Notes under the pieces: model-generated
Seen by the model: only the letters and a program-made list of their open reading frames with translations
What the model was told of the DNA's origin: nothing
The model's database searches: none
Assembly: GCA_000004695.1 (NCBI GenBank)
Contig: CM000151.3
Coordinates: forward strand, 8,160,001 to 8,224,000
Reading direction: 5' to 3'
Source: Dictyostelium discoideum
Lineage: Eukaryota
DNA length: 64,000 nucleotides
Program-made: the position numbers and the translations under genes
Shown here: positions 13,792-63,353 of the stretch, one piece after another
Layout of the letters: every line of letters begins with the position of its first letter
How positions within the stretch are numbered: position 1 is the first letter of the stretch

Positions 13792-13899
13792 TTCAAAAAA
13801 AAACATTTGAAACTTATATCGACACATGTATGTGTAGGTTATTTTTATTTTTTTTTTTATTTTATTATTTTTTTTGTTTTTTTTTTTTTTTTTTCCATC

Positions 13900-14236: not shown

Positions 14237-14269
<33 letters not shown>

Positions 14270-14700
14270 ATATAAAAAAAAAAAAAAGTGAAAATAAAAA
14301 ATAAAAATAAATTTAAAAATCTTGTACTATAAATAATTTGTAAAAAAAAAAAAAAAAATTGTAAAAATAAACAAAAAAAAAAAAATTAAAAAAAAAAGGG
14401 TTGCCCATTACTCATCATACTATCATTTAAATCAAAATTTTTTTAGAAAAAAAAAAAAAAAAAAAAAATAAAAAAATAAAATTAAAAAAAAATAAAATAA
14501 AAAAATTTAAATTAAAAATTTTTTTTTTTTTTTTTTTCAATCACAAACCATTTCACTACAAACATCTAACGCTCTTGAAGCAATCAAAATAATTTTTTAA
14601 ATATAAAATCAAACATATCAGTTTACGGTTACATCAACAAATCTTTTTTTTTTTTTTTTTTTCTCATTTTTTATTTTTTTTTAATATTATCTATATATAT

Positions 14701-28912: not shown

Positions 28913-28971
<59 letters not shown>

Positions 28972-30749: not shown

Positions 30750-31280
30750 TTTCTTTGAGACTTGACTATTTGGTTTTTTTTTTTTTTTATTTTTTTTTTT
30801 GTTCGGCCGAATTGTAAAAAAAAAATTAAAAAAAATAAAAAATAAAACAAAATTAAAAAAAAGAAATAATTTGGAAAAAAAAAAAAAAAAAAAAAAAATT
30901 ATTTTATTTAACTTTTTAACCAAAGAAAAAAGGATAATTTATTTATTTTTTTTTTAATTTTTTTAAATTCATTTTTATACACACCCGGTGTGTTTTTTTT
31001 GCAGTCAAAAAAAAAAAAAAATTAATAAAAAAAAAAAAATCATTTATTTTTTGACTTAAAACATTTTTACTTTTTTCAGAAGTGTGCTACATCCAAAGGT
31101 TGTTTAAATCTCAAGCTAACAAATCTTTTATTGCATCTGGGTGTGTATAAAAATGTATTTATTATGCGCCATTTTTCAATAAAAATTTTGTTTTGGTAAT
31201 TTTCACCATGTTGTAAAAAAGTTAAAAAAAAAAAAATAAAAGTAAAAAAAAAAAAAAAAATAAAAAAAATAAAAAACCCA

Positions 31281-33842: not shown

Positions 33843-33907
<65 letters not shown>

Positions 33908-35405
33908 TAGAGGTAGTGGTAGTAGTGGTGGTGATGATGATAGCAATTACAATAATAAGAAATACATAACTCAATTCGATACAATATTAAAAGAATTAAT
34001 TAAACAATTATCATTCAATATTTGTACAAACGTTAGTAATAGAGATGAAATTGTTGATGGTAAAGATTTCTTTAATCATTCATTAAATGAAGATTTAAAA
34101 TTCAGTTTAGATATTGGTAGAAAAGATTTATTTTGGGAATTATTAGATTGGATTCAACAATATATGATTAAAAATGAAAATTTAATGAAGCATCGAGTTT
34201 ATCAATTTAATTCACCATATGAATCATTATTACCAACTGGTACAATATTTTCAAATGTAAAAATAATAAAAAAAGAATTACCATCACCATCAACAACAAC
34301 AATTGAAAGCACTTTTTTAAAAATTGATAATTTTGAAAAACCAATACCAAATGAATCAACGATTAAAGTTAATTGGAATTCAGATAAATTAATTCAACCA
34401 TTCAAACCAATTTCAAAACTAATAAATTCATTTAAATATTCAGAGGAAGTTATGGATTCAATTTGTAAAGTAATGAATGTAAATGAAATTCAAAGATTTA
34501 TTCAATATAATTTCTTTGTATCGTTTTTTCAAAATGAAATTTATTCATTTTCATTATTTTATAGTAGAGAAGATTTAATATTATTCCTATTAAATAATTA
34601 TAATATTGATATTGATCTTCATTTCCCATTATTCAAACCAGATAGAGGACATTCACAATATTTAGAATGTAAATTCATCTTTGAAAATCATTTTGAAAAA
34701 GTAAAGAATATTTCAAAATTAAATTTAAAACAAAAATGGTTCGAGCTTCGTTGTTTACAATTCCCATTGGTTTTATTAAATTCTTTTTTTAAATACATTT
34801 GTAAAGAAAAGAATATCACAAGATATAATCAATTCATTCAAAATGATAATTTACAAATTAGAAAACAAGTAATTAAAAAAACAATTGAAATATTAATTGA
34901 TCAATTCTTATCAAGTACAGATAATAATGATGATGATGAAGATGAAGATGAAGATGAAGATCCTAATCAGAATTTTGCATATATATTAAAAAATCAAAAT
35001 CATAAAGTTTTACTCATTCAATCAATTATTGAACAATCAGATACTCAATTATACTTTAAATCAGCTTTAGATCAAATTTTATTGAGAATAGAAGAGAAAA
35101 GTTATGAAATTAATTCTCCATTCAATGAAAATCTTGAAAATCCATTTTTAGAATCTTTTATTTATGGGGATATTAAAACTTGTAATATCATTCTCAAGTA
35201 TTATCCAAATCAATTCAAAATCACAAAAGATTCAATCACTAAAACATTGGAAAAGGAAAAAATTAATATTATTAAATATTATTATAAAGTTGAAAATTGT
35301 AAAAATTTAATTAATAATTTTAAAAATGATAATAATTTATTAAAACATTTAAAAAATGAATTATTAAATCATCCAATGTATAAATATCATTTAACTTGGT
35401 TATAA
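31422..35405 (+). CDS. Family copy B, 1327 aa, intronless
   Basis: Starts MCDKIEILFWKVFKNQYLFNEIFNQIHNNQW and ends ...YKYHLTWL*. It carries a (AGT)n poly-Ser tract around 33843-33930 and an acidic Asp/Glu tract. Confidence 0.8.
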
Positions 35406-36110: not shown

Positions 36111-36269
36111 GTTAAAAAAGTGATATTTTATTTTATTTTATTTTTTTCCACCCAATTAAATAACTTTTTTTTTGATCAAAGAAAAAATGATAATTTGGTT
36201 CATTTATTTTTTTATTTTTTTATTTTTTTATTTTTTCAAAAATTTTTGGGTGGCAAAAATAAAATTTCA

Positions 36270-38614
36270 ATTACCAAATGAAAAAGAAGATATAATTAAA
36301 ATTTGGGAATACTTTAATAAACACTCCTTTAAACAAATGATACCAAATTATGATATTCTCATTGAATTCCTTTCAAGTGTAACAAATATTATTCCACCTT
36401 TAGAATTGAAAATATCTAATATTAAAGAGCCACTATCTGGAAAACTTGGAACAATTCTATTAATGCAATTATATAAAAAGAATTTAAATGTAATTGAATT
36501 ATTATTAAAAAGTTTTGATAATTTTAATTTTATACATCAACCAGAACAAATGTCAGCTATTGTAGATAAAGAGAGAAATTTATTTCATATTTCTGGCGAA
36601 TTATTCCAAGTTGATAAAAAGTTTAGTTTTCAAATAATCAGAATAATTAAATTGATAATGGACAAGTTTAATAAACTCACTAAAGATCAAATCAATATTG
36701 AAAATATTTCAACAACAACATATCGCCTCTTTTTAAATTATTTATATGATCAATTACTTAGAGTTAAAGGTTTGACAATTGATCAATTAGAATATGTTAG
36801 ATCAATTATTCCTGAACAATTATTAAATAATAATTTTGAAACCTATCGTATCTTTTTCTATCTTAATATCAGATCTTCAAAATTATCAAATTACCTAATC
36901 AAAAGACCTGGAATTACATATTTTATTCGAAATTCAACTGAACTCCTTTATAATAATTTCTACAATACTGCTGAACCAATTACAGATGAAATTATTGGTT
37001 TTGATTTAAGAAAATATTTAAATTTTGAATTATTCACATATGATTATATATTAGGTAGAGAATTAAATCAATATAATAATAGTGGTTGTAGTGGTTGTAG
37101 TGGTTGTAGTAGTAGTAGTAGTAGTAGCAGTAGTAGTGGCGGTGATGATGGTAGAAAAAATAATAAAAAGTATATAACTCAATTCGATACAATATTAAAA
37201 GAATTAATTAAACAATTATCATTCAATATTTGTACCAACTTTAGTGATAGAGATGAAATTGTTTATGGTAAAGATTTCTTTAATCATTCATTAAATGCAG
37301 ATTTTAAATTCAGTTTAGATATTGGTAGAAAAGATTTATTTTGGGAATTATTGATTGGATTCAACAATATATGATTAAAAATGAAAATTTAATGAAACTT
37401 CAAGTTTATCAATTCAATTCACCATATGAATCATTATTACCAACTGGTACAATATTTTCAAATGTAAAAATAATAAAAAAAGAATTACCATCACCATCAA
37501 CAACAACAACAACAATTGAAAGAACTTTTTTAAAAATTGATAATTTTGAAAAACCAATACCTAATAAATCAACGATTAAAGTTAATTGGAATTCAGATAA
37601 ATTAATTCAACTATTCAAACCAATTTCAAAACTTATAAATTCATTTAAATATTCAGATGGTGTTATGGAATCAATTTGTAGAGTAATGAATGTAAATGAA
37701 ATTCAAAGATTTATTCAATATAATTTCTGTGAATCATTTTTTCAAAATGAAATTTATACATATTCAGTATTTTTTAGTAGAGATGATTTAATGTCATTCC
37801 TATTAAATAATTTTAATATTGATATTGATCTTCATTTCCCATCATTTGAACCAAATAGAGGATATTCACAATATTTAGAATGAAAATTCATCTTTGAAAA
37901 TCATTTTGAAAAAGTAAAGAATATTTCAAAAATTAATAACAACCAAAAACAGTTCAAAAGTCGTTGTTTACAATTCCCATTGGTTTTATTAAATTCTTTT
38001 TCTAAATACATTTGTAAAGAAAAGAATATCACAAGATATAATCAATTCATTCAAAATGATAATTTACAAATTAGAAAACAAGTAATTAAAAAAACAATTG
38101 AAATATTAATTGATCAATTCTTATTAAGTGCAGATAATAATGATTATTATGATGATTACGATGATGATGATCAGAATTTTGCATCTATATTAAAAAATAA
38201 AAAACATAAAGTTTCACTCATTCAATCAATTATTGAACAATCCGATACTCAACTATACTTTAAATCAGCTTTAGATCAAATTTTAACGATAGTAGAAGAG
38301 AAAAGAAAATTTATGAAATTAATTCTCCATTCAATGAAAATCCTAGAAATCCATTCTTACAATCTTTTATTTTTGGTGATATTAAAACTTGTAATATCAT
38401 TCTTAAATATTATCCAAATCAATTCAAAATCACTAAAGATTCAATCACTGAAACATTAAAAATGGAAAATATTAATATTATTAAATATTTTTATAAAGTT
38501 GAAAATTGTAAAAATTTAATTAATAATTTTAAAAATGATAATAATTTATTAAAACATTTAAAAAACGAATTGTCAAAACATCCAATGTATAAATATCATT
38601 TAACTTGGTTATAA
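36270..38614 (+). pseudogene. Family copy C: 5'-truncated pseudogene (homology starts at the equivalent of copy-B residue about 550) with at least two frameshifts and an in-frame TGA
   Basis: Homology to copies B/D begins abruptly at ...FQLPNEKEDII. The reading frame is broken near 37370 (one-base deletion relative to paralogs in LLDWIQQYM) and by TGA at 37881-37883 where paralogs have TGT. There is a further frameshift near 38300-38340. The ORF track shows it as 3 separate fragments, and the terminal ...HLTWL* is retained. Confidence 0.75.
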
Positions 38615-38850: not shown

Positions 38851-41800
38851 ATGAGTGATAAAACAGAAATATTATTTTGGAAAGTTTTTAAAAATCAATA
38901 TTTATTCAACAAGATATTTAATCAAATTCACAACAATGAATGGATTGAATATGATGAACCAAATAAATATAATGTTTACAATAGATGTAAATTTGGAGAC
39001 ACTCACTCTTTGGTAATAATGATAAAAAATGATCTACTCCCATTAATTAAAGATAAAATCAAACATGGTGATCATATAGAAATTAATACTTTTTCAATAA
39101 AAGATCTTTTCTCAAAATTATCAACAGACCCATTAATTGATAATAAAAATAAAAATAAAAATAAATATAAAGATGAAGATTATTTAGAAATTATTGAATT
39201 ATTAATGAAAAATAGAAGAGATGATTTTGAAATTACTGATTTAATATGTATAGCAGCAGCCACTCGTTCTCCAGATGTTATTAGATTATTAGTTAATGAA
39301 CCATATTCAGTTGTAATTTATCCAAAAATATTTGAATTTGCAATTATGTATTCAAATTTAGCAACAATCAAAGAACTAATAAATTTAGAATCAATAAATT
39401 TTAAAAACTATGGTATTAAATTAATCAGTGAAGAATTTAAAAGAAAATCATTATCATTAGCAGTACATAGAACAACTCTTAAAACTACAATCACTGAATA
39501 CATTTTTAATAACCCATCATTATATTCAATACCACCACCATTATCATTATTAAATAATCAACAAAAACAAGAGCAACAAACACAATCAACAAATAAAAAA
39601 TTAAAAACATTTGAAACTTTACATCCAAATTTAAAAAATAACAGCAATAATAATAATAATAATGATAATGAAGAAATAAAGTACGAATATATTAAATTTA
39701 AAGATTTTATAAAATTAAAATCAAGTAATTTATTAAAATCATTTATGAAATTAGATATAGTAGTTTTAAGTGAAACTAAAACAAATTTTAATTCATTTCT
39801 TAAAATGTATCATCCATATGAAAGATTACAAGTTGGTATTAAAATTATTCTAAAGTATGATAATACAATTTCAGATATAAAAAAAAGAGAAGAAATTTTA
39901 GAAGAAATCAATAAAATTGATAGAAGTAATGAAACAGGTTTTAATAAATTAAAAGAATTGAGAAAATTAGTAGCAATAGAATTCCCAAATCAAATAAACT
40001 TTTATTTCTTTTATTGGAAAGCATATCGTGAGAAAATTAAAAAACTTGGTAAAGTTCCTTATAAATCAGGTTCTCATATTAATACACAAACTTTTGGACA
40101 CCTTCTTTTACAAGATGAATTAACCAATTATCAAACCAATACTCAAAAAGGTGATAAAAATATAGAACAAGTAGAATTATTATCATATATTACATATTCA
40201 GATAGTGAAAGTGAAAATGAAGTCGAAGAAGACACAATAATTGAAAAGGAATTATCTAATTTCTCTAATAGATTTAGAAATGCAACAGTTTTTGATATAT
40301 CAAATAGGTATTCAAATTTACTCAATTCATATTTAAAAGCAATTAAAGAATGTAATATTGAAAAATTAGAAAGGATTGATACAAATAATCCAATGTTTAA
40401 ATTAGATGTTTCAAAATATCATTGTTTTCAATTACCAAATGAAAAAGAAGATATAATGAAAATTTGGGAATACTTTAATAAACACTCCTTTAAACAAATG
40501 ATACCAAATTATGATATTCTCATTGAATTCCTTTCAAGTGTAACAAATATTATTCCACCTTTTGAATTGAAAATTTCAAATATTAAAGAGCCACTATCTG
40601 GTAAACTTGGAACAATTCTATTATGGCAATTATATAAAAAGAATTTTAATATAACGGAATTATTATTAAATAGTTTTGATAATTTTAATTTTATATATCA
40701 ACCAGAACAAATGTCAGCCATGGTAGATAAAGAGAGAGTTTTATTTCTTCGTAATGGTGAATTATTCCAAATTGATAAAAAGTTTAGTTTTCAAATAATC
40801 AGAATAATTAAATTGGTAATGGACAAGTTTAATAAACTCACTAAAGATCAAATCAATATTGAAAATATTTCAACAACAACATATCGTCTCATTTTAAATA
40901 ATTTATACGATCAATTACTTAGAGTTAAAGGTTTAACAATCGATCAATTAGAATATGTTAGATCAATTATTCCTGAACAATTATTTAATAATAATAGTTT
41001 TGAAACCTATCGTATCTTTTTCTATCTTAATATCAGATCTTCAAAATTAACAAATTACATAACCAAGAGACCTGGAATTACAAGTTTTATTGATAATTCA
41101 ATTGCATTCTCTAATCATTTCTACAATAGTACTGAACCAGTTACAAATGAAATTATTGGTTTTGATTTAAGAAAATATTTAAATTTTGAATTATTCACAT
41201 ATGATTATATATTAGGTAGAGAATCAAATCGATATAGTAGTGGTTTTAGTGGTGGTGGTAGTAGTAGTGGTTATGATGATGGTAGCAAAAATAATAATAA
41301 AAAGTACATAACTCAAGTAGATACAATATTAAAAGAATTAATTAAACAATTATCATTCAATATTTGTACAAACGTTAATAATAGAGATAATATTGTTAAG
41401 GGTGATGATTTCTTTAAACATTCATTAAATGCAGATTTAAGATTCAGTTTAGATATTGGTAGAAAAGATTTATTTTGGGAATTATTAGATTGGATTCAAC
41501 AATATATGATTAAAAATGAAAACTTAATGAAACTTCAAGTTTATCAATTTAATTCACCATATGAATCATTATTACCAACTGGTACAATATTTTCAAATGT
41601 AAAAATAATAAAAAAAGAATTACCATCACCACCAAAAGCAGCAACAGAAACAATAACAACAATTGAAAGTACTTTTTTAAAAATTGATAATTTTGAAAAA
41701 CCAATACCAAATGAATCATCAGTTAAAATCGATTGGAATTCAGATAAATTAATTGAAGCATTCAAACCAGTTTCAAAACTAATAAATTCATTTAAATATT

Positions 41801-42750
41801 CAGATGAAGTTATGGGTTCAGTTTGTAAAGTAATGAATGTAAATGAAATTCAAAGATTTATTCAATATAATTTCTTTGAATCATTTTTTCAAAATGCAAT
41901 TTATAAATATTCAGTATTTTTTAGTAGAGATGATTTAATGTCATTCCTATTAAATAATTATAATATTGATGTTGATTTCCCATTATCCAAACCAGATAGA
42001 CAATATTCACAATATTTAGAATGTAAATCCATCTTTGAAAATCATTTTGAAAAAGTAAAGAATATTTCAAAATTAAAACAGTTCAACAGTCCTTATTTAC
42101 AATTCCCATTTGTTTTTTTAGATTCTTTTTTTAAATACATTTGTAAAGAAAATAATATCACAACATATAATCAATTCGTTCAAAATTATAATTTACAAAT
42201 TAGAAAACAAATAATTAAAGAAACAATTGAAATACTAATTGGTAGATTCTTATCAGATACAAATGATGATGATGATAATGATGATTATGATGATGAAGAC
42301 CCTAATCAGAATTTTGCATTTATATTAAAAAATCAAAAATATAAAGTTTTACTCATTCAATTAATTATTGAACAATCAGATACTCAATTATACTTTAAAT
42401 CAGCTTTAGATCAAGTTTTATTAAAATTAAAAGAAGATAGAAAAAATTATGAAATTAATTCTCCATTCATTGAAAATCTTGAAAATCCATTCTTACAAGC
42501 TTTTATTAATGGTGATATTAAAACTTGTAATATCATTCTTAAATATTATCCAAATCAATTCAAAATAACAAAAGATTCAATCACTGAAACATTAAAAATG
42601 GAAAAAATTCATATTATTAAATATTTTTATAAAGTTGATAATTGTAAAAATTTAATTAATAATTTTGAAAATGATAATAATTTATTAAAACATTTAAAAA
42701 ATGAATTATCAAAACATCTAGTTTATAAATATCATTTAACTTGGTTATAA
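38851..42750 (+). CDS. Family copy D, 1299 aa, intronless
   Basis: Starts MSDKTEILFWKVFKNQYLFNKIF and ends ...HLTWL*. It has short Ser/Gly and acidic tracts. Confidence 0.8.
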   Translation: MSDKTEILFWKVFKNQYLFNKIFNQIHNNEWIEYDEPNKYNVYNRCKFGDTHSLVIMIKNDLLPLIKDKIKHGDHIEINTFSIKDLFSKLSTDPLIDNKNKNKNKYKDEDYLEIIELLMKNRRDDFEITDLICIAAATRSPDVIRLLVNEPYSVVIYPKIFEFAIMYSNLATIKELINLESINFKNYGIKLISEEFKRKSLSLAVHRTTLKTTITEYIFNNPSLYSIPPPLSLLNNQQKQEQQTQSTNKKLKTFETLHPNLKNNSNNNNNNDNEEIKYEYIKFKDFIKLKSSNLLKSFMKLDIVVLSETKTNFNSFLKMYHPYERLQVGIKIILKYDNTISDIKKREEILEEINKIDRSNETGFNKLKELRKLVAIEFPNQINFYFFYWKAYREKIKKLGKVPYKSGSHINTQTFGHLLLQDELTNYQTNTQKGDKNIEQVELLSYITYSDSESENEVEEDTIIEKELSNFSNRFRNATVFDISNRYSNLLNSYLKAIKECNIEKLERIDTNNPMFKLDVSKYHCFQLPNEKEDIMKIWEYFNKHSFKQMIPNYDILIEFLSSVTNIIPPFELKISNIKEPLSGKLGTILLWQLYKKNFNITELLLNSFDNFNFIYQPEQMSAMVDKERVLFLRNGELFQIDKKFSFQIIRIIKLVMDKFNKLTKDQINIENISTTTYRLILNNLYDQLLRVKGLTIDQLEYVRSIIPEQLFNNNSFETYRIFFYLNIRSSKLTNYITKRPGITSFIDNSIAFSNHFYNSTEPVTNEIIGFDLRKYLNFELFTYDYILGRESNRYSSGFSGGGSSSGYDDGSKNNNKKYITQVDTILKELIKQLSFNICTNVNNRDNIVKGDDFFKHSLNADLRFSLDIGRKDLFWELLDWIQQYMIKNENLMKLQVYQFNSPYESLLPTGTIFSNVKIIKKELPSPPKAATETITTIESTFLKIDNFEKPIPNESSVKIDWNSDKLIEAFKPVSKLINSFKYSDEVMGSVCKVMNVNEIQRFIQYNFFESFFQNAIYKYSVFFSRDDLMSFLLNNYNIDVDFPLSKPDRQYSQYLECKSIFENHFEKVKNISKLKQFNSPYLQFPFVFLDSFFKYICKENNITTYNQFVQNYNLQIRKQIIKETIEILIGRFLSDTNDDDDNDDYDDEDPNQNFAFILKNQKYKVLLIQLIIEQSDTQLYFKSALDQVLLKLKEDRKNYEINSPFIENLENPFLQAFINGDIKTCNIILKYYPNQFKITKDSITETLKMEKIHIIKYFYKVDNCKNLINNFENDNNLLKHLKNELSKHLVYKYHLTWL

Positions 42751-44054: not shown

Positions 44055-44822
44055 ATGTGTGATAAAACAGAAATATTATTTTGGAAGGTTTTTAAAAATC
44101 AATATTTATTCAGAGAGATATTTAATCAAATTCACAACAATCAATGGATTGAATATGATAAACCAAATAAATATAATGTTTACAATAGATGTAAATTTGG
44201 AGACACTCACTCTTTAAAAATAATGATAGAAAATGATCTACTCCCATTAATTAAAGATAAAATCAAACATGGTGATCATATAGAAATTACTTATCATTCA
44301 ATAAAAGATCTTTTCACAAAATTATCAACAGAAACATTTTATAAAAATTATAATGAAAATAATAAATATAAAGATGAAGATTATTTAGAAATTATTGAAT
44401 TACTAATGAAACATAGAAGAGATGAATTTGAAATTTATGATTTAATAAATTTAGCAGCAGTCACTGGTTCTCCAGATGTTATTAGATTATTAGTTAATGA
44501 ACCATATTCAGTTGTAATTTATCCACAAACATTTGAATTTGCATTTGTGGTTTCAAGTTTAGAAACAATCAAAGAACTAGTAAATTTAGAATCAACAAAT
44601 TTTAAAAATTATGGTATTAAATTAACTAGTGAACAATTTAAAAGAAGAATATTATCATTTGTAACTCAAAGATTATATCTTAAAACTTCAATCACTGAAT
44701 TCGTTTTTAATAATCCATCATTATATTCAATACCACCACCATTATCATTAGTAAATAATCAAAAACAAGGACAACAAACACAATCAACAAATAAAAGATT
44801 AAAAACTTTAGATTCAAATTTA

Positions 44823-44903
<81 letters not shown>

Positions 44904-46557
44904 GATAATGATAATGATAATGATAATGATAATGATAATGATAGTGATAGTGATAATGATGATGAAGAAATAAAGTATGGATATATTAAATTAAATGAAT
45001 TTATAAAATTAAAATCAAGCAATTTATTAAAATCATTTATGGAATTAGATATAGTAGTTCCAAGTGAAACTAAACCAAATTTTAATTCATTTCTTACAAT
45101 GTACCATACATATGAAAGATTACAAGTTGGTATTAAAATTATTCTAAAGTATGGAGATACAATTCCAGAAAAAAAAAGAGAAGAAATTTTAGAAGAAATC
45201 AATAAAATTGATAGAAATAATGAAACAGGTTTTAATAAATTAAAAGAATTGAGAAAATTAGTAGCAATAGAATTCCCAAATCAAAAAAACTTTTATTTCT
45301 ATTATTGGAAAGCGTATCGTGAGAATATCAAAAAACTTGGTAAAGTTCCTAATAAATCAGGTTCTCCAAATAATAATATGGAAACTTTCGGATTCCTTCT
45401 TTTAGAAGACGAATTAATTAATAATGAAACCAATACTCAAGAAGGTGACGAAAATATAGAACAAGTAGAATTATTATCATATATTACATATTCAAATAGT
45501 GATGATGAAAATGATCTTGGAGGAGAAGACATAATAAATGAAAAGGAATTATTTAATCCATTTAATAGATGTAAAAATGCAACATTTTTTGATATATCCA
45601 ATAAATATCCAGATTTACTCAATTCATATTTAAAAGCAATTAAAGAATGTAATATTGAAAAGTTAGAAAGGATTGATACAAATAATCCAATGTTTAAATT
45701 AGATGTTTCAAAATATCATTGTTTTCAACTACCACATGAAAAAGAAGATATAATGAAAATTTGGGAATACTTTAATAAACACTCCTTTAAACAAATGATA
45801 CCAAATTATGATATTCTCATTGAATTCCTTTCAAGTGTAACTAATATTATTCCACCTTTTGAATTGAAAATATCTAATATTAAAGAGCCACTATCTGGAA
45901 AACTTGGAACAATTCTGTTAATGCAATTATATAAAAAGAATTTTAATATAACGGAATTATTATTAAATAGTTTTGATAATTTTAATTTTATACATCAACC
46001 AGAACAAATGTCTGATATTATAGATCGAGAGAGATTTTTATTTCATATTTCTGGCGAATTATTCCAAATTGATAAAAAGTTTAGTTTTCAAATAATTAGA
46101 ATAATTGAATTGATAATGGACAAGTTTAATAAACTCACTAAAGATCAGATCAATATTGAAAATATTTCAACAACAACATATCGTCTCATTTTAAATCATT
46201 TATATGATCAATTACTTAAAGTTGAAGGTTTAACAATTGATCAATTAGAATATGTTAGATCAATTATTCCTGAACAATTATTTAATAATAATAGTTTTGA
46301 AACCTATCGTATCTTTTTCTATCTTAATATCAGATCTTCAAAATTATCAAATTACCTAATCAAAAGACCTGGAATTGAGTATTTTATTCAAAATTCAACT
46401 GGATTCTTAAATCATTTCTACAATACTATTGCACCAACCACAAATGAAATTATTGGTTTCGATTTAAGAAAATATTTAAATTTTGATTTATTCACTTATG
46501 ATTATATATTAGGTAGAGAATCAAATCAATATAGTAGTGGTAGTAGTAGTATCAGTA

Positions 46558-46588
<31 letters not shown>

Positions 46589-48116
46589 AAGTAGTGGTAG
46601 TAGAAGTGGTGGTGGTGGTAGCAGTAGTAGTAGTAGTGGTGATGATGGTAACAAAAATAATAATAAAAAGTATATAACTCATGTAGATACAATATTAAGA
46701 GAATTAATTAAACAATTATCATTCAATATTTGTACAAACCTTAGTAATAGAGATGAAATTGTTGATGGTAAAGATTTCTTTAATCATTCATTAAATGAAG
46801 ATTTAAAATTCAGTTTAGATATTGGTAGAAAAGATTTATTTTGGGAATTATTAGATTGGATTGAACAATATATGGCTAAAAATGAAAACTTAATGAAACT
46901 TCAAGTTTATCAATTTAACTCACCATATGAATCATTATTACCAACTAGTACAATATTTTTAAATGTAAAAATAATAAAAAAAGAATTACCATCACCATCA
47001 GCAACAACAACAATTGAAAGTACTTTTTTAAAAATTGATAATTTTGAAAAACCAATACCAAATGAATCAACGATTAAAGTTAATTGGAATTCAGATAAAT
47101 TAATTGAACCATTCAAACCAATTTCAAAACTTATAAATTCATTTAAATATTCAGACGATGTCTTAAAATCAATTTGTAGAGTAATGAATGTAAATGAAAT
47201 TCAAAGATTTATTCAATATAATTTCTTTGAATCATTTTTTCAAAATGAAATTTATTCATATTCATTAATTTTTAGTAGAGATGACTTATTGTCGTTCCTA
47301 TTAAATAATTATAATATTGAACCTGATTTCCCATTATTTGAACCAAGTAGAAAATATTCACAATATTTAGAATGTAAATTCATTTTTGAAAATCATTTTG
47401 AAAAAGTAAAGAATATTTCAAAATTAAAAGTCAAACAAAAATGGTTCAAAGGTGATGATTTACGATCCCCATCGGTTTTATTAGATACTTTTTTAAAATA
47501 CATTTGTCTTGAAAAGAATATCACAAGATATAATCAGTTCATTCAAAATTATAATTTACAAATTAGAAAACAAATAATTAAAGAAACAATTGAAATACTA
47601 ATTGGTCAATTCATATCAGATGATGGTGATGATGATGAAGATGAGGATGATGATGAAGATGAAGACCCTAATCAAAATTTTGCATCTATATTAAAAGATC
47701 AAAAACATAAAGTTTTACTCATTCAATCAATTATTGAACAATCAGATACTCAATTATACTTTAAATCAGCTTTAGATCAAGTTTTATTAAAATCAAAAGA
47801 AGATAGAAAAAATGATGAAATTAATAATCCATTCATTGAAAATAATAAAAATCCATTCTTACAATCTTTTATTTATGGTGATATTAAAACTTGTAATATC
47901 ATTCTTAAATATTATCCAAATCAATTCAAAATCACTAAGGATTCAATCACTGAAACATTAGAAATGGAAAATATTCATATTGTTAAATATTATTATAAAG
48001 TTGATAACTGTAAAAATTTAATTAATAATTTTAAAAATGATAATAATTTATTAAAACATTTAAAAAATGAATTATCAAAACATCCAATTTATAAATATCA
48101 TTTAACTTGGTTATAA
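44055..48116 (+). CDS. Family copy E, 1353 aa, intronless
   Basis: Starts MCDKTEILFWKVFKNQYLFREIF and ends ...HLTWL*. It contains a (GATAAT)n Asp-Asn repeat tract around 44861-44950 and a long Ser/Gly tract around 46540-46640. Confidence 0.8.
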
Positions 48117-48251
48117 AAAAAATAATAAAAGCAAATTAAATAAAAATAAATAAAAATAAATAAAAACAAATAAAAACAAAAAATAATTACCGTGAAAGGT
48201 CTAAATAAATTTTTTTTTTTGAGGTTATTTTTTAAAAAAAGTGGGTGTTGC

Positions 48252-48283
<32 letters not shown>

Positions 48284-48347
48284 AATATGTTCCAACACCA
48301 TTTTTTTTTTTAATTTTACATTTTTATTATTATTTTTTTTTTTTAAA

Positions 48348-48432
48348 AAGTGTGACAAAACATAACTATTATTTTGGAAAGTTTTTAAAAATAAATATTT
48401 ATTCAAAGAGATATTTAATCAAATTCACAACA
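48348..48432 (+). pseudogene. 5' fragment of family copy F (start codon mutated to AAG), separated from the rest of the gene by the TIR-bounded insertion
   Basis: AAGTGTGACAAAACATAACTATTATTTTGGAAAGTTTTTAAAAATAAATATTTATTCAAAGAGATATTTAATCAAATTCACAACA aligns to the first about 90 nt of copies B/E (ATGTGTGATAAAACAGAAATATTATTTTGG...). Homology stops at 48432 and resumes at 50628. Confidence 0.75.
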
Positions 48433-48652
48433 TTTGTTGTTGGGATTTTTTTTTGAATTTTCGCTTTCTAAACGGCAGTGATTTTTTACACTAAAATACA
48501 CTGTTTATACATAGGGTAAAAATTCACTAAATTTTTTTTTTTTTATAATTAAATTAAAAAACATTTTATTTAATCAGAACAATAAAAAACCATTTTTATT
48601 CAGTTATTTGCTTGTTATTTATTTTTTTATAACAAAAAAATTTAGTTTGCGC

Positions 48653-48701
<49 letters not shown>

Positions 48702-48825
48702 TTATTTTTTTCAATTTTTTTTTTATCGAAACAATTTTATTTTATTCCCCAAAAATGAAAATATCAAAAATAAATGAAATAAAAAATTATTTAATATTAC
48801 CTTATTTTTGTGTCTTCGTTACATA
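48433..48825. repeat. Left terminal inverted repeat of the insertion
   Basis: Reverse-complementary to 50042..50627 (see the mobile element feature). Confidence 0.7.
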
Positions 48826-49081
48826 AAAAAAAAAAAAAAAAAAGAAAAATGCAAAATAAAAAAAAAAATAAAAAAATTTATATTAAAATAAAAAAAAAGG
48901 AAAATAAAAAAAAAAAAAAAAAATAAAAAAAAAAAAAAAAAAATAAAAAAAAAAAAAAAAATTGGCTCAAATCTAACAATTTAAATTGTTATTTAATTCT
49001 TAAACAACAAATAATTGTTTAAAATTAGTTTTTTTATTATTTTGATTAAATAAATTGTTTTTAATTTATAAAAAAAAAAAT

Positions 49082-49121
49082 AGATGGTAAATAGTAGATG
49101 GTAAATAATAGATGGTAAATA
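49082..49121. repeat. Three tandem copies of AGATGGTAAATA inside the TIR-element core
   Basis: tagatggtaaatagtagatggtaaataatagatggtaaataaaa. Confidence 0.8.
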
Positions 49122-49823
49122 AAAAAGTTAATTTTTCAAAATTTTACCATCCAAAAACACCCCCAATTTACCATCAGCTAATACAACTCACACGTTGTTC
49201 ATTTGCTGTTCATTTCATATCAATTTAAAAAACAATAAATAATTTAATTCCCGCTATTTTTTGCGGATTTGCGGAAATGATTTTTTTTAATTTATAAAAA
49301 AATTTGATTTTTTTTATTTAAGACAGATCTTATCAGATTTATAAAATGAGAAAATATAATAGATATCTACTATTTTTGGCATTAAACAAAGATTTCTGAA
49401 TATTCAGAAATAGACAGCGAAACTATCTAATATTGTAAGTGTAACCACGGAGATCGCCACGTGGATTTGCGGCACTTCCTGCTGCTGGTCCCCAGCCATA
49501 TTGGCCGTTTATTGGACGTTGTGAGAGATTTTGGCCTGGTTGTACGATTCCGCCTGATGTCATTTGCTGGGAATAAGAATATATGAGATTTAATTAATAA
49601 ATATACATGATATGATTGATAAAAATAGAACAAATTTTAAATTTTTAAAATTGTACACATACATTAAAGTATAATAATATAATTTGTTAAAAATAATTTG
49701 AAATGTTTTTTTTGAAAAAATTTTTTTGTTAATGTTTTATCAACATTTTTTAAATTAAAAAATAAAAAAAATAAAATTAAAAAATAAAAAAAATAAAAAA
49801 TAAATTTAATTAAATTCCAACAT

Positions 49824-49938
49824 TTTTTAGGGGGGTACCCTCTTTTTTTTATTTAAATATTAATTTTCATTTTTATTATTATTATTATTATTATTAAAAT
49901 TATTATTTTTTTTAGGGGGGGGTACCCTCTTTTTTTTT
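49824..49938. repeat. Two direct copies of TTAGGGGGG(G)TACCCTCTTTTTTTT about 85 bp apart, each containing the palindrome GGGTACCC, inside the TIR-element core
   Basis: Copies lie at about 49824-49850 and about 49909-49938. Confidence 0.7.
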
Positions 49939-50041
49939 TATTTTTTTTTTATTTTTTTTATTTTTTTTTTTTATTTTTTATTTTTCTTTTTTTTTTTATT
50001 TTTCTTTTTTTTTTTTTTTTTTTTTTTTCATTTTTTTTTTT

Positions 50042-50230
50042 ATGTAACGAAGACACAAAAATAAGTTAATATTAAATAAGTGAACTAAGACACTAATTAT
50101 AGTTGACCCACATTTAAATAATAATAATAATAATAATAATTCTATTAACTCGAGTTTATAATTATAAATAATATAAATACTAAAAATAATTATATAAACA
50201 ATAATGAATACCATAATTAAAATATAAACC

Positions 50231-50270
<40 letters not shown>

Positions 50271-50360
50271 ATTTTTTTCAATTTTTTTTTATCGAACAAT
50301 TTTATTTTATTCCCAAAAATGAAAACAATCGATAAAAAAAAAAATTGAAAAAAATAATTG

Positions 50361-50406
<46 letters not shown>

Positions 50407-50627
50407 GCAAACTAAATTTTTTTGTTATAAAAAAATAAATAACAAGCAAATAACTGAATAAAATTGGTTTTTTATTTTTCTGATTAAATAAATTGTTTTT
50501 TAATTTAATTATAAAAAAAAAAAAAATTTAGTGAATTTTTACACCATGCATAAACAGTGTATTTTAGTGTAAAAATTCACTGCCGTTTAGAAAGCGAAAT
50601 TTCAAAAAAAATTGCCTACAACAACAA
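50042..50627. repeat. Right terminal inverted repeat of the insertion (longer than the left arm because of an internal about 190 bp extra segment and a local palindrome around 50265-50390)
   Basis: Reverse-complementary to 48433..48825. It has an internal hairpin-like palindrome CAATTATTTTTTTCAATTTTTTTTTATCG ... CGATAAAAAAAAAAATTGAAAAAAATAATTG. Confidence 0.65.
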
Positions 50628-53600
50628 TCAATGGATTGAATATGATAAACCAAATAAATATAATGTTTACAATAGATGTAAATTTGGAGACACTCACTCT
50701 TTAAAAATAATGATAAAAAATGATCTATAAAATCAAACATGGTGATCATATAGAAATTACTGATTCAATAAAAGATCTTTTCTCAACATTATCATCAGAT
50801 CCATTAATTAATAATAATAATAAATTTAAATATAAAGATGAAGATTATTTAGAAATTATTGAATTATTAATGAAACATAGAAGAGATGAATTTGAAGCTA
50901 CTGATTTAATAAATACAGCAGTCATTAGTTCTCCAGATATTATTAGATTATTAGTTAATGAACCATACTCAGTTATAATTTATCCAACAACATTTGAATT
51001 TGCAATTATAAATTCAAATTTAGAAACAATCAAGAACTAGTAAATTTAGAATCAATAAATTTTAAAAACTATGGTATTAGATTAATCAGTGAAGAATTTA
51101 AAAGAAAATCATTATCATTAGCAACTCAAAGAAAAACTTTTAAAACTACAATCACTGAATACATTTTTAATAATCCATCATTATATTCAATACCACCACC
51201 ATTATCATTAATAAATAAACAACAACAACAAGAACCATCAACAAATAAAAGATTAAAACTATCTGAAACTTTAGATTCAAATTTAAAAAATAATGATAAT
51301 GATAATGATAATGAAAATAATAATTATGAAGAAATAAAGTATGGATATATTAAATTAAATAAATTTATAAAATTAAAATCAAGCAATTTATTAAAATCAT
51401 TTATGGAATTAGATATAGTAGTTTTAAGTGAAACTGCAACAGATTTTAATTCATTTCTCAAAATGCACCATACATATGAAAGATTACAAGTTGGTATTAA
51501 AATTATTCTAAAGTATGATAACACAATTTCAGATATAAAAAAAAGAGAAGAAATTTTAGAAGAAATCAATAAAATTGATAGAAATAATGAAACAGGTTTT
51601 AATAAATTAAAAGAATTGAGAAAATTAGTAGCAATAGAATTCCCAAATCAAAAAAACTTTTATTTCTATTATTGGAAATCTTATCGTGAGAATATTAAAA
51701 AACTTGGTAAAATTCCTAAAAAATCAGGTTCTCATATTAATATACAAACTTTTGAACACCTTCTTTTTCAAGATGAAATAAACAATTATCAAACCAATAC
51801 CCAAGAAGGTGATGAAAATATAGAACAAGTAGAATTATTATCATATATTACAGATTCGGATAGTGAAGGTGATAATGATGTTGAACTAGAATATTTAATA
51901 ATTAGAGATGAATTATTTAATTTCTCAAATAGATTTAGAAAAATAACATCAACATTTTGTGATATATCCAATAGATATTCAGATTTACTCAATTCATATT
52001 TAAAAGCAATTAAAGAATGTAATATAGAAAAATTAGAAGAGATTGATACAAATAATCCAATGGTTTAATTAGATGTTTCAAAATATCATTGTCTTCAATT
52101 ACCAAATGAAAAAGAAGATATAATGAAAATTTGGGAATACTTTAATAAACACTCCTTTAAATCTTAATGACCCATTATTTAAAAAACTTGGAACATTTCT
52201 ATTATGGCATTATATAGAAAGAATTTAAATGTAATTGAATTATATTAAATAGTTTTGATGATTTTAATTTTATATATCAACCACAACAAATGGCAACTAT
52301 TTTAGAACGTGAGAGATTTTTATTTAATAATCGTAATGGTGAATTATTCCAAGTTGATAAAAAGTTTAGTTTTCAAATAATCAGAATAATTGAATTGGTA
52401 ATGGACAAGCTTAATAAACTCAGTAAAGATCAAAATAATTTTGGAAATATTTCAACAACTTATCGTCTCATTTTTAATAATTTATATGATCAATTACTAA
52501 GAGTTAAAGGTCTAACAATCGATCAATTAGAATATGTTAGATCAATCATTTTTGAACAATTATGTAATAATAATAGTTATGATACCTGTCGTATCTTTTT
52601 CTATCTTAATATCAGATCTCCAAAATTATCAAATTACATAATCAAAAGAATTACAAATTTTATTGAAAATTCAAATGCATTCTTTAATGATTTCTAAGAT
52701 ACTATTGGACCAACTACAAATGAAATTGTTGGTTTTGATATAAGAAAATATTTAAATTTTGAATTATTAACATATGATTATATATTAGGTAGAGAATTAA
52801 ATCAATATAGTAGTGATTTTAGTGGTGGTAGTAGTAGTAGTATTAGTAGTAGTAGTAGAAGTAGTAGTAGTAGAAGTTGTAGTAGTATTGGTAGTGTTAG
52901 TAGTAGTGGTAGTGTTAGTAGTAGTGGTAGTATTAGTGGTAGTAGTGGTGATGATGGTAGCAAAAATAATAATAAAAAATACATAACTCAATTCGATACA
53001 ATATTAAGAGAATTAATTAAACAATTATCATTCAATATTTGTACAAACCTTAGTAATAGAGATAGAATTGTTAAGGGTAAAGATTTCTTTAATCATTCAT
53101 TAAATGCAGATTTAAAATTCAGTTTAGATATTGGTAGAAAAGATTTATTTTGGGAATCATTAGATTGGATTCAACAATATATGATTAAAAATGAAAATTT
53201 AATGAGGTATCAAGTTTTTCAATTTAATTCACCATATGAATCATTATTACCAACCAGTACAATATTTTCAAATGTAAACATAATAAAAAAAGAATTACCA
53301 TCACCAGCAACGACAACAACAGAAACAACAACAATTGAAAGCACTTTTTTAAAAATTGATAATTTTGAAAAACCAATACCAAATGAATCAACGATTAAAG
53401 TTTATTGGAATTCAGATAAATTACTTGAAGTATTCAAACCAATTCCAAAACTAATAAATTCATTTAACTATTCGGATGAAGTTATGGATTCAGTTTGTAG
53501 AGTAATGAATGTAAATGAAATTCAAAGATTTATTCAATATAATTTCTTTGAACCATTTTTTCAAAATGAAATTTATTCATATTCAGTATTTATGAATAGA

Positions 53601-54398
53601 GAAGATTTAATGTCATTCCTATTAAACAATTATGATATTGATATTGATTTCCCATTATTTCAAGCAAGTACGGAATATTCACAATATTTAGAATGTAAAT
53701 TCATCTTTGAAAATCATTTTGAAAAAGTAAAGAATCTTTCAAATGTCAAACAAAAATGGATCGAAAGTCGTTATTCAGAAATTCCATCGGGTTTATTAGA
53801 TACTTTTTTTAAATACATTTGTCTTGAAAAGAATATCACAAGATATAATCAATTCATTCAAAATGATAATTTACAAATTAGAAAACAAGTAATTAAAGAA
53901 ACAATTGAAATACTAATTGGTCTACTCTTATCAGGTACAGATTACGATGATGAAGACCCTAGTCAGAATTTTTCATGTATATTAAGAAATCAAAAACATA
54001 AAGTTTCACTCATTCAATCAATTATTGAACAACCAGATACTCAATTATTCTTTAAATCAGCTTTAGATCAAGTTTTATTAAAATCAAAAGAAGACAGAAA
54101 AAATGATGAAATTAATAACCCATTCAATGAAAATCTTAAAAATCCATTCCTACTATCTTTTATTTTTGGTGATATTAAAACTTGTAATATCATTCTCAAA
54201 TATTATCCAAATCAATTTAAAATCACTAAAGATTCAATCACTGAAACATTAAAAATGGAAAAAATTAATATTATTAATAAAGTTGATAATTGTAAAAATT
54301 TAATTAATAATTTTAAAAACGATAATAATTTATTAAAACATTTAAAAAATCGATTATCAAATCATCCAATTTATAAATATCATTTAACTTGGTTATAA
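50628..54398 (+). pseudogene. Body of family copy F: multiple internal deletions, frameshifts and stops (broken into 4+ ORF fragments) but retaining ...HLTWL* at 54396-54398
   Basis: Homology resumes at TCAATGGATTGAATATGATAAACC. There is a deletion after ...NDL (50720s) and a 1-bp deletion giving ATCAAGAACTAG stop (about 51036). Further stops and frameshifts occur near 52070, 52160-52290 and 52697. Only the C-terminal about 400 codons remain as one ORF (53181..54398). Confidence 0.75.
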
Positions 54399-54579: not shown

Positions 54580-54670
54580 GAAAAATCCATACATTTTTTT
54601 TTTTTTTCATTATATATTGTTCATATTTTCATTTATTATTATTTTCATTTTCATTATTATTTTTTTTACA

Positions 54671-58762
<4,092 letters not shown>

Positions 58763-59195: not shown

Positions 59196-59996
59196 ATGAG
59201 TGATAGAACAGAAATATTATTTTGGAAAGTTTTTAAAAATCAATTTTTATTCAAAGAGATATTTAATCAAATTCACAACAATGAATGGATTGAATATGAT
59301 GAACCAAATAAATATAATGTTAACAATAGATGTAAATTTGGAGACACTCACTCTTTACTAATAATGATAAAAAATGATCAACTCCCATTAATTAAAGATA
59401 AAATCAAACATGGTGATTATGTACATTTTAATTATGATTCAATAAGATTTCTTTTCTTAAAATTATCAACAACAGAACACCTACCACCATCAATAAAAAA
59501 TAATAATAAAAATAAATATAAAGATGAAGATTATTTAGAAATTATTGAATTATTTATGAAACATAGAAGAGGTGAATTTGAAATTAATGATTTAATACAT
59601 ATAGCAGCTTCTATAAATTCCCCAGTTATCATTAGATTATTAGTTAATGAACCATATTCAGTTATAATTTATCCACAAACATTTGAATTTGCAATTAGAT
59701 TTTCAAATTTAGAAACAATCAAAGAACTAATAAATTTAGAATCACTTAATTTTAAAAACTATGGTATTAAATTAATCAGTGAAGAATTTAAAAGAAAATC
59801 ATTATCATTAGCAGCACATAGAAAAACTCTTAAAACTACAATCACTGAATACATTTTTAATAATCCATCATTATATTCAATACCACCACCATTATCATTA
59901 ATAAATAATCAAAAACAACAAGATCAACAACAAACACAATCAAAAAATAAAAGATTAAAAATATCTGAAACTTTACATTCAAATTTAAATAATAAA

Positions 59997-60045
<49 letters not shown>

Positions 60046-60046
60046 G

Positions 60047-60124
<78 letters not shown>

Positions 60125-61803
60125 CGATGATGGTGATGGTGATGATGATAGTGATAATTATACTGATAGTGATAATTATAATGATAATGAAAATGGAAAT
60201 GATAATTATAAAGAAAAAATAAGAAATGGATATATTGAATCTCATGAATTTATAGAATTAAAATCAACCAATTTATTAAAATCATTTATGGAATTAGATA
60301 TAGTAGTTTTAAGTAAAACTAAAACATATTTTAATCAATTCCTTAAAATGTATCATCCATATGAAAGATTACAAGTTGGTATTAAAATGATTCTAAAGTT
60401 TGATAATACAATTCCAGAAAAAAAAAGAGAAGAAATTTTAGAAGAAATCAATAAAATTGATAGAAATAATGAAAGAGGTTTTAATAAATTAAAAGAATTG
60501 AGAAAATTAGTGGTAATTGAATTCCCAAGGCAAATAAACTTTTGTTACTATTATTGGAAAGCTTATGGCGAGAATATTAACAAACCTGGTGAAGTTCCTA
60601 AAAAATTAGGTTCTCCAGATAGTAATATGGAAACTTTCGAAAACCTTCTTTTAGAAAATGACTTACATGTCAATAATGAAACCAATACTCAAGAAGGTGA
60701 TGAAAATATAGAACAAGTAGAATTATTATCAAATAGTTTATATTCAGATAGTGAAGATGAAAATGAAGTTGAATTTGAAAGATATGTTGGACAACATGAT
60801 CCTTTTTTAGAAGAGTATTTTAATTACTCAAATAGATTAAGAAAAGAACCATTTTTTGATATATCCAATAGATATCCAGATTTACTCAATTCATATTTAA
60901 AAGCAATTAAAGAATGTAATATTGAAAAATTAGAAGATATTGATACAAATAATCCAATGTTTAAATTGGATGTTTCAAAATTTCATTGTTTTCAATTACC
61001 AAATGAAAAAGAAGATATATTGAAAATTTGGGAATACTTTAATAAACACTCATTTAAACAAATGATACCAATTGATATTCTTATTGAATTCCTTTCAAGT
61101 GTAACAAATATTATTCCACCTTTTGAATTGAAAATTTCAAATCTTAAAGAGCCATTATTTAAAAAACTTGGAACATTTCTATTATGGCAATTGTTTAAAA
61201 AGAATTATAATATATTTGAATTATTATTAAATAGTTTTGATGATTTTAATTTTATATTTCAACCACAAGAACTATCAGCTATGATAGATCAAGAGAAAGT
61301 TTTATTTGATGGTGATGGTGAATTATTCCAAATTGATAAAGAGTTTGGTTTTCAAATAATCAGGATAATTAAATTGGTAATGGACAAGTTTAAAAAACTC
61401 AGTAAAGATCAAATCAATATTAAAAATATGTCAACAACATATCGTCTCATTATAAATCATTTATATGATCAATTACTTAGAGTTAAAGGTTTAACAATCG
61501 ATCAATTAGAATATGTTAAATCAATTATTCCTGAAAAATTATTTTTTAATTATTTTAAAGCCTATCGTATCTTTTTCTATCTCAATATCAGATCTCCAAA
61601 ATTAACAAAATACATAACCAAAAGACCTGGAGTTGCAAATTTTATTGAAAATTCAGAAGTAGAGGATTACTATAATACTATTGGACCAACTACAAATCTA
61701 ATTACTGGTGATGAAATTATTGGTTTTGATTTAAGAAAATATTTAAATCTTGATTTATTCACATATGATTATATATTAGGTAGAGAATTAAATCAATATA
61801 ATT

Positions 61804-61864
<61 letters not shown>

Positions 61865-63353
61865 TGGTAGTGGTAGTAGTAGTGGTAGTAGTAGTGATGG
61901 AAGCAAAAATAATAAAAAGTACATAACTCAATTCGATACAATATTAAGAGAATTAATTAAACAATTGTCATTCAATATTTGCACAAACCTTAGTAATAGA
62001 GATGAAATTGTTGGTGGTAAAGATTTCTTTAATCATTCATTAAATGAAGATTTAAAATATAGTTTAGATATTGGTAGAAAAGATTTATTTTGGGAATTAT
62101 TAGATTGGATTGAACAATATATGATTAAAAATGAAAATTTAATGAAGCATCAAGTTTATCAATTCAATTCACCATATGAATCATTATTACCAACTAGTAC
62201 AATATTTTCAAATGTAAAAATAATAAAAAAAGAGGTACCATCACCATCGTCAACAACAACAATTGAAAGCACTTTTTTAAAAATTGATAATTTTGAAAAA
62301 CCAATACCAAATGAACCATCGATTAAAGTTTATTGGAATTCAGATAAATTAATTGAACCATTCAAACCAATTTCAAAACTTATAAATTCATTTAAATATT
62401 CAGACGATGTCTTAAAATCAATTTGTAAAGTAATGAATGTAAATGAAATTCAAAGATTTATTCAATATAATTTCTTTGTATCATTTTTTCAAAATGAAAT
62501 TTATACATATTCATCATTAATCAATAGAGAAGATTTAATGTCATTCCTATTAAACAATTATGATATTGATATTGATTTTCCAAACAAAGGATATTCAAAA
62601 TATTTAGGACGTAAATTCATCTTTGAAAATCATTTTGAAAAAGTCAATATTTTAAAATTAGATTTCAATCAAAAATGGTACGAAAGTCGTTATTTACACT
62701 TCCCATCGGTTTTATTAAACTATTTTTCTGAATACATTTGTCTTCAAAATAATATCACAACATATAATCAATTCATTCAAAATGATAATTTACAAATTAG
62801 AAAACGAGTAATTAAAGAAACAATTGAAATATTAATTGATCAATTCTTATCAGGTACAGATAATAATTATGATGATAATGATGAAGATGAGTATGGTGAA
62901 GACACTAATCAGAATTTTGCATCTATAATAAAAAATCAAAATCATAAAGTTTTACTCATTCAATCAATTATTGAACAATCAGATACTCAATTATACTTTA
63001 AATCAGCTTTAGATCAAGTTTTATTAAAATCAAAAGAAGATAGAAAAAATGATGAAATTAATGATCCATTCATTGAAAATCTTAAAAATCCATTCTTAGA
63101 ATCTTTTATAAATGGTGATATTAAAACTTGTAATCTCATTCTTGAATACTATCCAAATCAATTTAAAATGACTAAAGATTCAATCACTAAAACCTTAAAA
63201 ATGCAAAATATTCATATTATTAAATATTATTATAAAGTTGATAATTGTAAAAATTTAATTAATAATTTTAAAAATGATAATAATTTATTAAAACATTTAA
63301 AAAATGAATTACCAAAACATCCAATTTATAAATATCATTTAACTTGGTTATAA
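59196..63353 (+). CDS. Family copy H, 1385 aa, intronless
   Basis: Starts MSDRTEILFWKVFKNQFLFKEIF and ends ...HLTWL*. Poly-Asn (59995-60045) is followed by a (GAT)n poly-Asp tract of about 33 codons (60047-60150), with a poly-Ser tract at 61804-61895. Confidence 0.8.

Follow-up and report, generated by a model that had tools for sequence, protein, structure and literature searches.

The 64,000-nucleotide stretch of Dictyostelium discoideum DNA analysed here (assembly GCA_000004695.1, contig CM000151.3, positions 8,160,001 to 8,224,000; hereafter the window) carries a tandem array of genes for proteins of ~1300 amino acids, which lies on chromosome 2 downstream of a cofilin-domain gene. One member of this array, copy F, is interrupted ~85 nt past its start by an insert of ~2.19 kb. 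We consider it likely that this insert is a non-autonomous cut-and-paste transposon of 2189 bp, which entered copy F in the laboratory lineage with the help of a Tdd-type mobiliser. In the scenario that we propose, a class II element would have inserted itself at about codon 29 of copy F in the ancestry of the NC4-derived laboratory strains and thereby duplicated the 5-bp target ACAAT. Since no transposase is encoded by the element, it would have been mobilised in trans, most likely by an integrase-like DDE transposase of the kind found in Tdd-4 and Tdd-5 (Ginger2/TDD), as judged from structural features.

Boundaries of the insertion and its empty orthologous sites

The 5' part of copy F stops at ~48432-48434 and the gene resumes at ~50624-50629. 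In a repeat search, 48299-48432 matched 54622-54755 and 50621-50727 matched 54750-54856. A multiple alignment of the 5' ends revealed that all five intact paralogs (B, C, D, G and H) are uninterrupted at this site, where they read ...AATCAAATTCACAACAAT(G/C)AATGGATTG... Indeed, the two parts of copy F align contiguously to each of these five genes, which bears out the view of the initial annotation that a family gene has been split by an insertion.

A second assembly of the region (GCA_054883475.1, locus L001) was found via DDB_G0277643, and it aligns to window positions 28836-52793 at 99.62% identity, with the element included. Its junctions read CACA[ACAAT]TGTTGTAGGG...GCCTACAACA[ACAAT]CAATGG and thus define a target-site duplication (TSD) of 5 bp, ACAAT. 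The element tips in L001, TGTTGTAGG and CCTACAACA, are perfectly matched, and TGTTGTAGG...CCTACAACA is also found at the right end in the window. The insert had previously been placed at 48433-50627 with a length of 2195 bp. While a size of ~2.19 kb is correct, the element extends from 48435 to 50623 and measures 2189 bp. Likewise, a short TSD had been rightly anticipated, but the proposed ACAACA is unsupported and derives from a left arm that is probably erroneous in the window. The same applies to the tips TTGTTGTTG that had been claimed before, for which L001 gives TGTTGTAGG and CCTACAACA. The resulting order of features is as follows.

48348-48429, plus strand: 5' fragment of copy F, from the start-codon position to the TSD; aligns with the first ~82 nt of copies B, C, D, G and H
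48430-48434, no strand: left TSD copy; ACATT in the window and ACAAT in L001, with a single ACAAT in the empty sites of loci L002 and L004
48435-50623, no strand: whole element of 2189 bp, TGTTG...CAACA, as delimited by the symmetric tips of its terminal inverted repeats (TIRs) and the TSD; absent from the L002 and L004 sites
50624-50628, no strand: right TSD copy, ACAAT
50629-54398, plus strand: rest of copy F, a pseudogene, as seen by tblastn with paralog proteins

Loci from other isolates include two in which the orthologous site is empty. In L002 (GCA_054859385.1), copies A, B and C are present together with the cofilin gene that also flanks the array in the window, and the copy after them is closest to F, with 92.5-94.6% identity in tiles as compared to 86-90% for the other paralogs. 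Over the first 87 nt, this copy is identical to copy F of L001 (87/87), whereas the paralogs match at 81-82 of these positions. The empty target in L002 reads CACAACAATGAATGG and contains ACAAT once. L004 (GCA_054859355.1) has an F-like and then a G-like copy, which is the order seen in the window, and the site is again empty with a single ACAAT. The cofilin-domain gene borders the array in the window, in L002 and in L003. No part of the element sequence was found in any of the loci L002 to L006. The empty orthologous sites therefore point to a true integration with a defined pre-integration site. Together with the TIRs, the TSD and the multicopy internal open reading frame (ORF) described below, they uphold the earlier proposal of a transposon hit in a member of a tandem family. 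Two assemblies of the laboratory lineage, the window and L001, contain the insertion, which among the genomes reached is specific to the NC4-derived laboratory lineage. It can thus serve as a clean presence/absence marker that distinguishes this lineage from wild isolates.

Arms, core and coding content of the element

By blastn, 48434-48729 and 50624-50329 are reverse-complementary over 298 columns (94.6% identity, E = 9e-130), and a global arm-to-arm alignment gave a continuous TIR of ~295 bp per arm. The element ends had been correctly recognised as reverse-complementary in the initial annotation, and their pairing far exceeds chance, but there is no natural boundary at the ~390 and ~585 bp that were given as arm lengths. 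A second inverted block (48787-48960 versus 50079-49930, 82.8%) consists of 37 unique bp plus poly-A/T, and when it is counted the arms reach, discontinuously, ~526 and ~694 bp. About 250 bp at 50080-50328 are confined to the right arm, and the two arms enclose a unique core of ~1 kb. Within the element, the following features were distinguished.

48435-48729, plus strand: left TIR, outer continuous block (blastn and global alignment)
48787-48960, plus strand: left inner inverted block; unique 37-mer with TGTGTCTTCGTTACAT, followed by an A-rich tract
49083-49175, plus strand: cluster of the GATGGTAAA motif, with 3 direct and 2 inverted copies
49423-49563, minus strand: ORF of 46 amino acids (MTSGGIVQPGQNLSQRPINGQYGWGPAAGSAANPRGDLRGYTYNIR); single 141-nt exon in a GC island
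49830-49927, no strand: two copies of GGGGGGTACCC, 87 bp apart, with a palindromic KpnI site inside; upstream of the minus-strand ORF
49930-50079, minus strand: right inner inverted block, the partner of 48787-48960
50080-50328, no strand: right-arm-only sequence; 50236-50362 repeats the left arm's inner end in direct orientation
50329-50623, minus strand: right TIR, outer block, identical in the window and L001

In the window, the 16-mer TGTGTCTTCGTTACAT has just two occurrences, one in each orientation, and GGGGGGTACCC has no further window occurrences beyond the two listed. The GATGGTAAA cluster possibly represents candidate protein-binding or promoter sites. The blastn comparison also paired 50236-50390 with itself at 85% and matched 48667-48794 to 50236-50362 at 87%. 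The resulting local palindrome of 155 nt starts in the extra sequence of the right arm and runs 62 nt into the right TIR. This palindrome arises from a direct-orientation copy of sequence past the left TIR. If transcribed, it could form a hairpin, which is of interest given the small RNAs reported for thug-S elements (see below). Compared to L001, the window has longer homopolymeric or low-complexity tracts at 48687 (+12, T) and 50361 (+27, A), as well as at 31284 (+7, T) and 35455 (+7, A-rich, AAAAAAC). These differences could reflect long-read collapse or true tract instability.

No transposase was detectable in the element, in which the longest stop-free stretch has 115 codons and is of low complexity. 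The long ORFs of the element are poly-F/K translations of homopolymer. A Pfam scan of all element ORFs and frames identified no family at the curated cut-off, with weak sub-threshold matches to one low-complexity ORF only, and no remnant of an integrase-like DDE or rve domain was detected in any frame. A chimeric six-frame protein query composed of all non-low-complexity element ORFs had no match at E ≤ 10. The absence of ORFs of more than 115 codons and of Pfam matches at cut-off agrees with the earlier view of a non-autonomous element.

The ORF of 46 amino acids sits in an island of ~150 bp with ~50% GC, as compared to 20.1% for the window. Its GC content at codon positions 1, 2 and 3 is 0.61, 0.59 and 0.30, respectively, which is a coding-type periodicity. 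The encoded peptide is 100% identical to DDB_G0269070, DDB_G0294605 and Q54ZF4, and the same protein is found under four accessions on three contigs (EAL68615.1, EAL70122.1, EAL73124.1 and EDR41073.1), where NCBI labels it 'hypothetical protein'. No homolog beyond the peptide itself was found among 5.8 billion proteins, and an exact look-up of contigs encoding it returned none on record. Since the ORF is identical at at least four annotated loci, the element family appears to be multicopy, and the identity of the ORF among at least four copies suggests recent activity of the family. No further element copies were found elsewhere in the window or in the loci L002 to L006. In exact-pattern scans, the core and TIR were absent from metagenome contigs, and the TIR was absent from prokaryotic genome contigs. 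A plausible 3' splice site (ttattcccag) directly precedes the 46-amino-acid ORF, which may be what is left of a larger gene's final exon. A GT...AG interval (49661 to 49568, minus strand) is present upstream of the ORF, but no open upstream exon is associated with it. A structured RNA in the GC island was considered as well and rejected, the folding z-scores for the two strands being -1.05 and -0.44. An Rfam scan of 48000-51000 gave no match at E ≤ 1.

It could be argued that the insert is not a mobile element at all and arose through local rearrangement, for instance by inverted duplication or as a palindrome formed during replication or repair, or else that it is an artefact of assembly. The odd palindrome at 50236-50390 in the right arm and the fact that only one full copy was examined would be in line with this idea. 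However, an independent long-read assembly shows the same structure, the 5-bp duplication is clean and its target is single-copy in the orthologous empty sites, and the identical internal ORF is found at other annotated loci on three contigs. We therefore regard such an origin as very improbable.

Left-arm sequence quality, decay of copy F and the surrounding array

In the paper that describes the assemblies, AX2-214 and nine wild isolates were sequenced, and AX2 and AX4 were 99.5% identical at another locus. Since AX2-214 was among the sequenced strains and is nearly identical to AX4, L001 probably represents AX2. The window and L001 differ by 30 substitutions, 19 of which fall within the 560 bp of 48349-48909, i.e. 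in the 5' fragment of copy F and the left arm, while only 11 are spread over the other 23 kb. Wherever the two assemblies disagree within the TIR, the right arm has the base of L001, and 13 sites distinguish the two arms in the window as compared to 4 substitutions in L001. Positions 48349 and 48363 are located outside the TIR, and there L001 has the base of all paralogs and of the ortholog from the wild isolate, yet it keeps its F-specific variants. Throughout 48349-48909, the base in L001 is shared with the right arm, the paralogs or this ortholog. The window variants in 48349-48909 are mostly A-to-T changes that duplicate the adjacent base (AAT to ATT, AGT to GGT). Among them are the start codon, which reads AAG in the window and ATG in L001 and the L002 ortholog, and a TAA at 48362-48364 that is present in the window only and reads GAA in L001. 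The initial annotation had taken the start codon of copy F to be mutated to AAG, but this reading is specific to the window assembly.

These patterns make it very likely that 48349-48909 is a low-quality stretch of the window assembly, the errors of which would account for the spurious AAG start and TAA stop codons as well as for a false mismatch in the TSD. As a check on the left-arm sequence, an exact look-up was performed with the 71-amino-acid ORF that spans the left junction, and none was on record. Alternatively, the differences could be real, with a genuine AAG start and an imperfect TSD, if one arm had been hypermutated in the strain of the window or if arm-to-arm conversion had occurred in the strain of L001. 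Long inverted repeats are substrates for intramolecular conversion and repair, and the clustering of 19 of the 30 substitutions in 560 bp would fit such processes. However, arm-to-arm conversion cannot produce the states at 48349 and 48363 since both positions are outside the TIR, the copying of adjacent bases is typical of base-calling errors, and there are only 11 other substitutions in 23 kb between strains that, in the case of AX2 and AX4, are ~99.5% identical at another locus. A biological origin of these differences is thus rather improbable. If raw reads agree, the ~19 probable base-calling errors in ~560 bp are worth correcting in the reference.

When the element is removed, tblastn against the paralog proteins C and D places copy F successively in frames 1, 2, 1, (2) and 3, with in-frame stops. 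Copy F has therefore accumulated at least three frameshifts besides the insertion, and its previous designation as a pseudogene holds independently of the latter. In L001, where coverage of copy F is limited to its first ~2.2 kb, the first two frame changes and in-frame stops are found again. One of the frameshifts in F is a 17-bp deletion near 50728, which L002 and L004 do not share. The L002 ortholog of F is open for 803 codons and then ends, and the L004 ortholog has been frameshifted independently. Either the transposon or a frameshift may have been the first to inactivate copy F. For the 221-amino-acid ORF of F, an exact look-up directed at the right junction or an empty site found none on record. 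At 17405-23921 of L002, ~6.5 kb that follow the F ortholog have no similarity to the window and include ORFs of 159, 247 and 247 amino acids, with a weak zf-RING_UBOX hit as the sole Pfam match. No above-threshold Pfam match and no usable TIRs were found in this downstream region, which could represent another mobile element or a swapped segment.

The insertion had also been described as fresh and datable. Neither attribute is supported. In a cut-and-paste element, both TIRs come from the donor copy and were possibly non-identical already at insertion, and the divergence of the arms, with its 13 differences in the window as compared to 4 in L001, is therefore not a clock. The age of the insertion can be bounded only by the strains in which it is present or absent. 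The F orthologs of wild isolates are ~5-7% diverged, and the insertion postdates the split from these isolates. Copy F also carries at least three frameshifts of its own.

The other members of the array in the window are listed below.

26997-30923, minus strand: copy A
31422-35405: copy B
36172-38459: broken family copy, 5' part missing (ORFs 36172-37374, 37341-37883 and 37980-38459)
38851-42750: copy C
44055-48116: copy D
54671-58762: copy G
59196-63353: copy H

Copy C corresponds to DDB_G0277643 of Dictyostelium discoideum AX4, with 1299 of 1299 residues being identical. The family protein, examined as the product of copy G (54671-58759), has no Pfam domain above threshold, its best match being a sub-threshold one to DDHD (21.9 bits versus a cut-off of 28.3). 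The homologs that were detected all come from assemblies of Dictyostelium discoideum and D. cf. discoideum. An exact look-up of the copy D protein, aimed at the orthologous locus in other assemblies, found none on record, and there are no tRNA genes in the whole window. The broken copy between B and C has no counterpart in L002, indicating that the copy number of the array varies among isolates. Moreover, L005, a second array in the wild isolate GCA_054859385.1 located ~100 kb from the first, contains at 12944-14338 on the minus strand a gene whose product has a transposase domain of the DDE_1 (pogo/Tigger) type, directly after a truncated family member of 771 amino acids. Transposons have therefore hit this family repeatedly.

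Affiliation of the element and comparison with known systems

The insertion is a real but ordinary transposon insertion, a known kind of event in a well-catalogued genome, and its biological significance is small, as it adds one more insertion in an already dead gene copy. The repeats of the Dictyostelium genome were reportedly catalogued in 2001. The most useful by-products of the analysis are the probable reference errors in 48349-48909 and the presence/absence polymorphism.

Several points weigh against our interpretation as a Tdd-mobilised insertion in the laboratory lineage. One full element copy was examined and a second full copy was not retrieved, so that the multicopy status is based on identical annotated proteins rather than on aligned copies of the element. 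Due to the (ACA)n context, the TSD could formally measure 2, 5 or 8 bp, and symmetric tips are obtained only with 5 bp; in addition, the left copy of the TSD in the window reads ACATT as opposed to ACAAT in L001. The wild isolates have diverged by 5-7% in this array, and gene conversion among paralogs could blur the orthology of the empty sites. Lastly, the link to Tdd consists of three structural features.

The element may have been named before. The catalogue of Dictyostelium repeats by Glockner et al. in 2001 is said to name thug-S and thug-T, and thug is one of three named groups of DNA transposons in the genome. That the element is a copy of this catalogued family, in particular thug-S, and perhaps dependent on Tdd, is a possibility that we rate at somewhat less than even. 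Such an identity would be a matter of naming and compatible with a Tdd-mobilised insertion in copy F. By description, thug-S and thug-T resemble the element in being low-copy but multicopy, DNA-transposon-like, devoid of a recognisable transposase and associated with small annotated transposable-element genes. The share of thug in the genome, ~0.1% (PMC5633606), fits a handful of 2-kb copies and at least four identical ORFs. Furthermore, small expressed genes are labelled 'thugS element' in dictyBase, one example being DDB_G0271154_TE (PMC12405889), and thug-S is multicopy and a source of small RNAs (PMC4894637, PMC6161686). On the other hand, the window lacks both strands of miRNA_can_D3 (PMC4894637, Table 2), which only possibly equals the thug-S-derived 'miRNA-like_D3', even when 3 mismatches are allowed. 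The thug-S gene model is also described with an intron, whereas the 46-amino-acid ORF is a single exon of 141 nt, and NCBI refers to this ORF merely as a 'hypothetical protein'. Neither the gene identifiers of the ORF nor the word 'thug' was found in the supplements of related papers.

A more direct relationship to Tdd would exist if the element were an internal-deletion derivative of Tdd-5, or of Tdd-4, that has kept the parental TIRs along with an internal remnant in which a parental gene's last exon survives. The TIR length of ~295 bp compared to 297 bp in TDD-5, the 5-bp TSD and the TGTNR termini would agree with this, as would the coding-like periodicity of the 46-amino-acid ORF and the 3' splice site ttattcccag directly before it. 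Yet no rve or integrase remnant was found in any frame, the peptide has no other homolog among 5.8 billion proteins, where the Tdd ORFs are expected to be represented, and the literature gives two occurrences of Tdd-5 as compared to at least four loci of the ORF. We consider this derivation unlikely. Still less likely is a speculative variant in which an uncatalogued non-autonomous family, mobilised by Tdd/Ginger2, carries the conserved, GC-rich 46-amino-acid micro-ORF as a functional passenger and not as a relic, and the recent insertion in copy F is a strain-specific knockout. If this were true, the knockout would have occurred in a fast-evolving tandem family, the copy number and content of which differ between isolates and which is also hit by other transposons, as with the DDE_1 gene in L005.

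The initial annotation had called the element MITE- or foldback-like, but neither term is appropriate. Miniature inverted-repeat transposable elements (MITEs) are typically shorter than ~0.8 kb. Like them, the element is non-autonomous, has TIRs and a TSD at its borders and would depend on mobilisation in trans, but it was rejected as a MITE in view of its 2189 bp, TIRs of ~295 bp, unique core of ~1 kb and ORF of 46 amino acids with coding-like periodicity. Foldback (FB-type) elements share with it the long inverted arms, which make up to ~56% of the element when the inner poly-A/T blocks are counted. In this case, however, the arms consist of unique sequence plus homopolymer and not of tandem subrepeats, and the core of ~1 kb is unrepeated.

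The closest resemblance is to the Ginger2/TDD group. The termini of these elements follow TGTNR, the TSDs produced by TDD-4 and TDD-5 measure 5 bp, and the TIRs span 260 bp in the former and 297 bp in the latter (PMC2836005). Tdd-4 and Tdd-5 are larger, with ~3.8 kb as compared to 2.19 kb, and they encode an integrase-like transposase with an H2C2 zinc finger and a DDE domain, which is absent from the present element and makes it at most a non-autonomous relative. At the same time, the termini of the element conform to the pattern TGTNR...YNACA (TGTTG...CAACA), a 5-bp TSD is present with ACAAT at both ends in L001, and the TIRs of ~295 bp are long like those of TDD-4 (260 bp) and TDD-5 (297 bp), which reside in the same host species. 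It is because the termini, the TSD and the TIR size all agree that a Tdd-type mobiliser appears most likely. If Tdd-like termini and a 5-bp TSD hold in other copies, the element would represent a non-autonomous Dictyostelium element that is linked to a Ginger2/TDD transposase.

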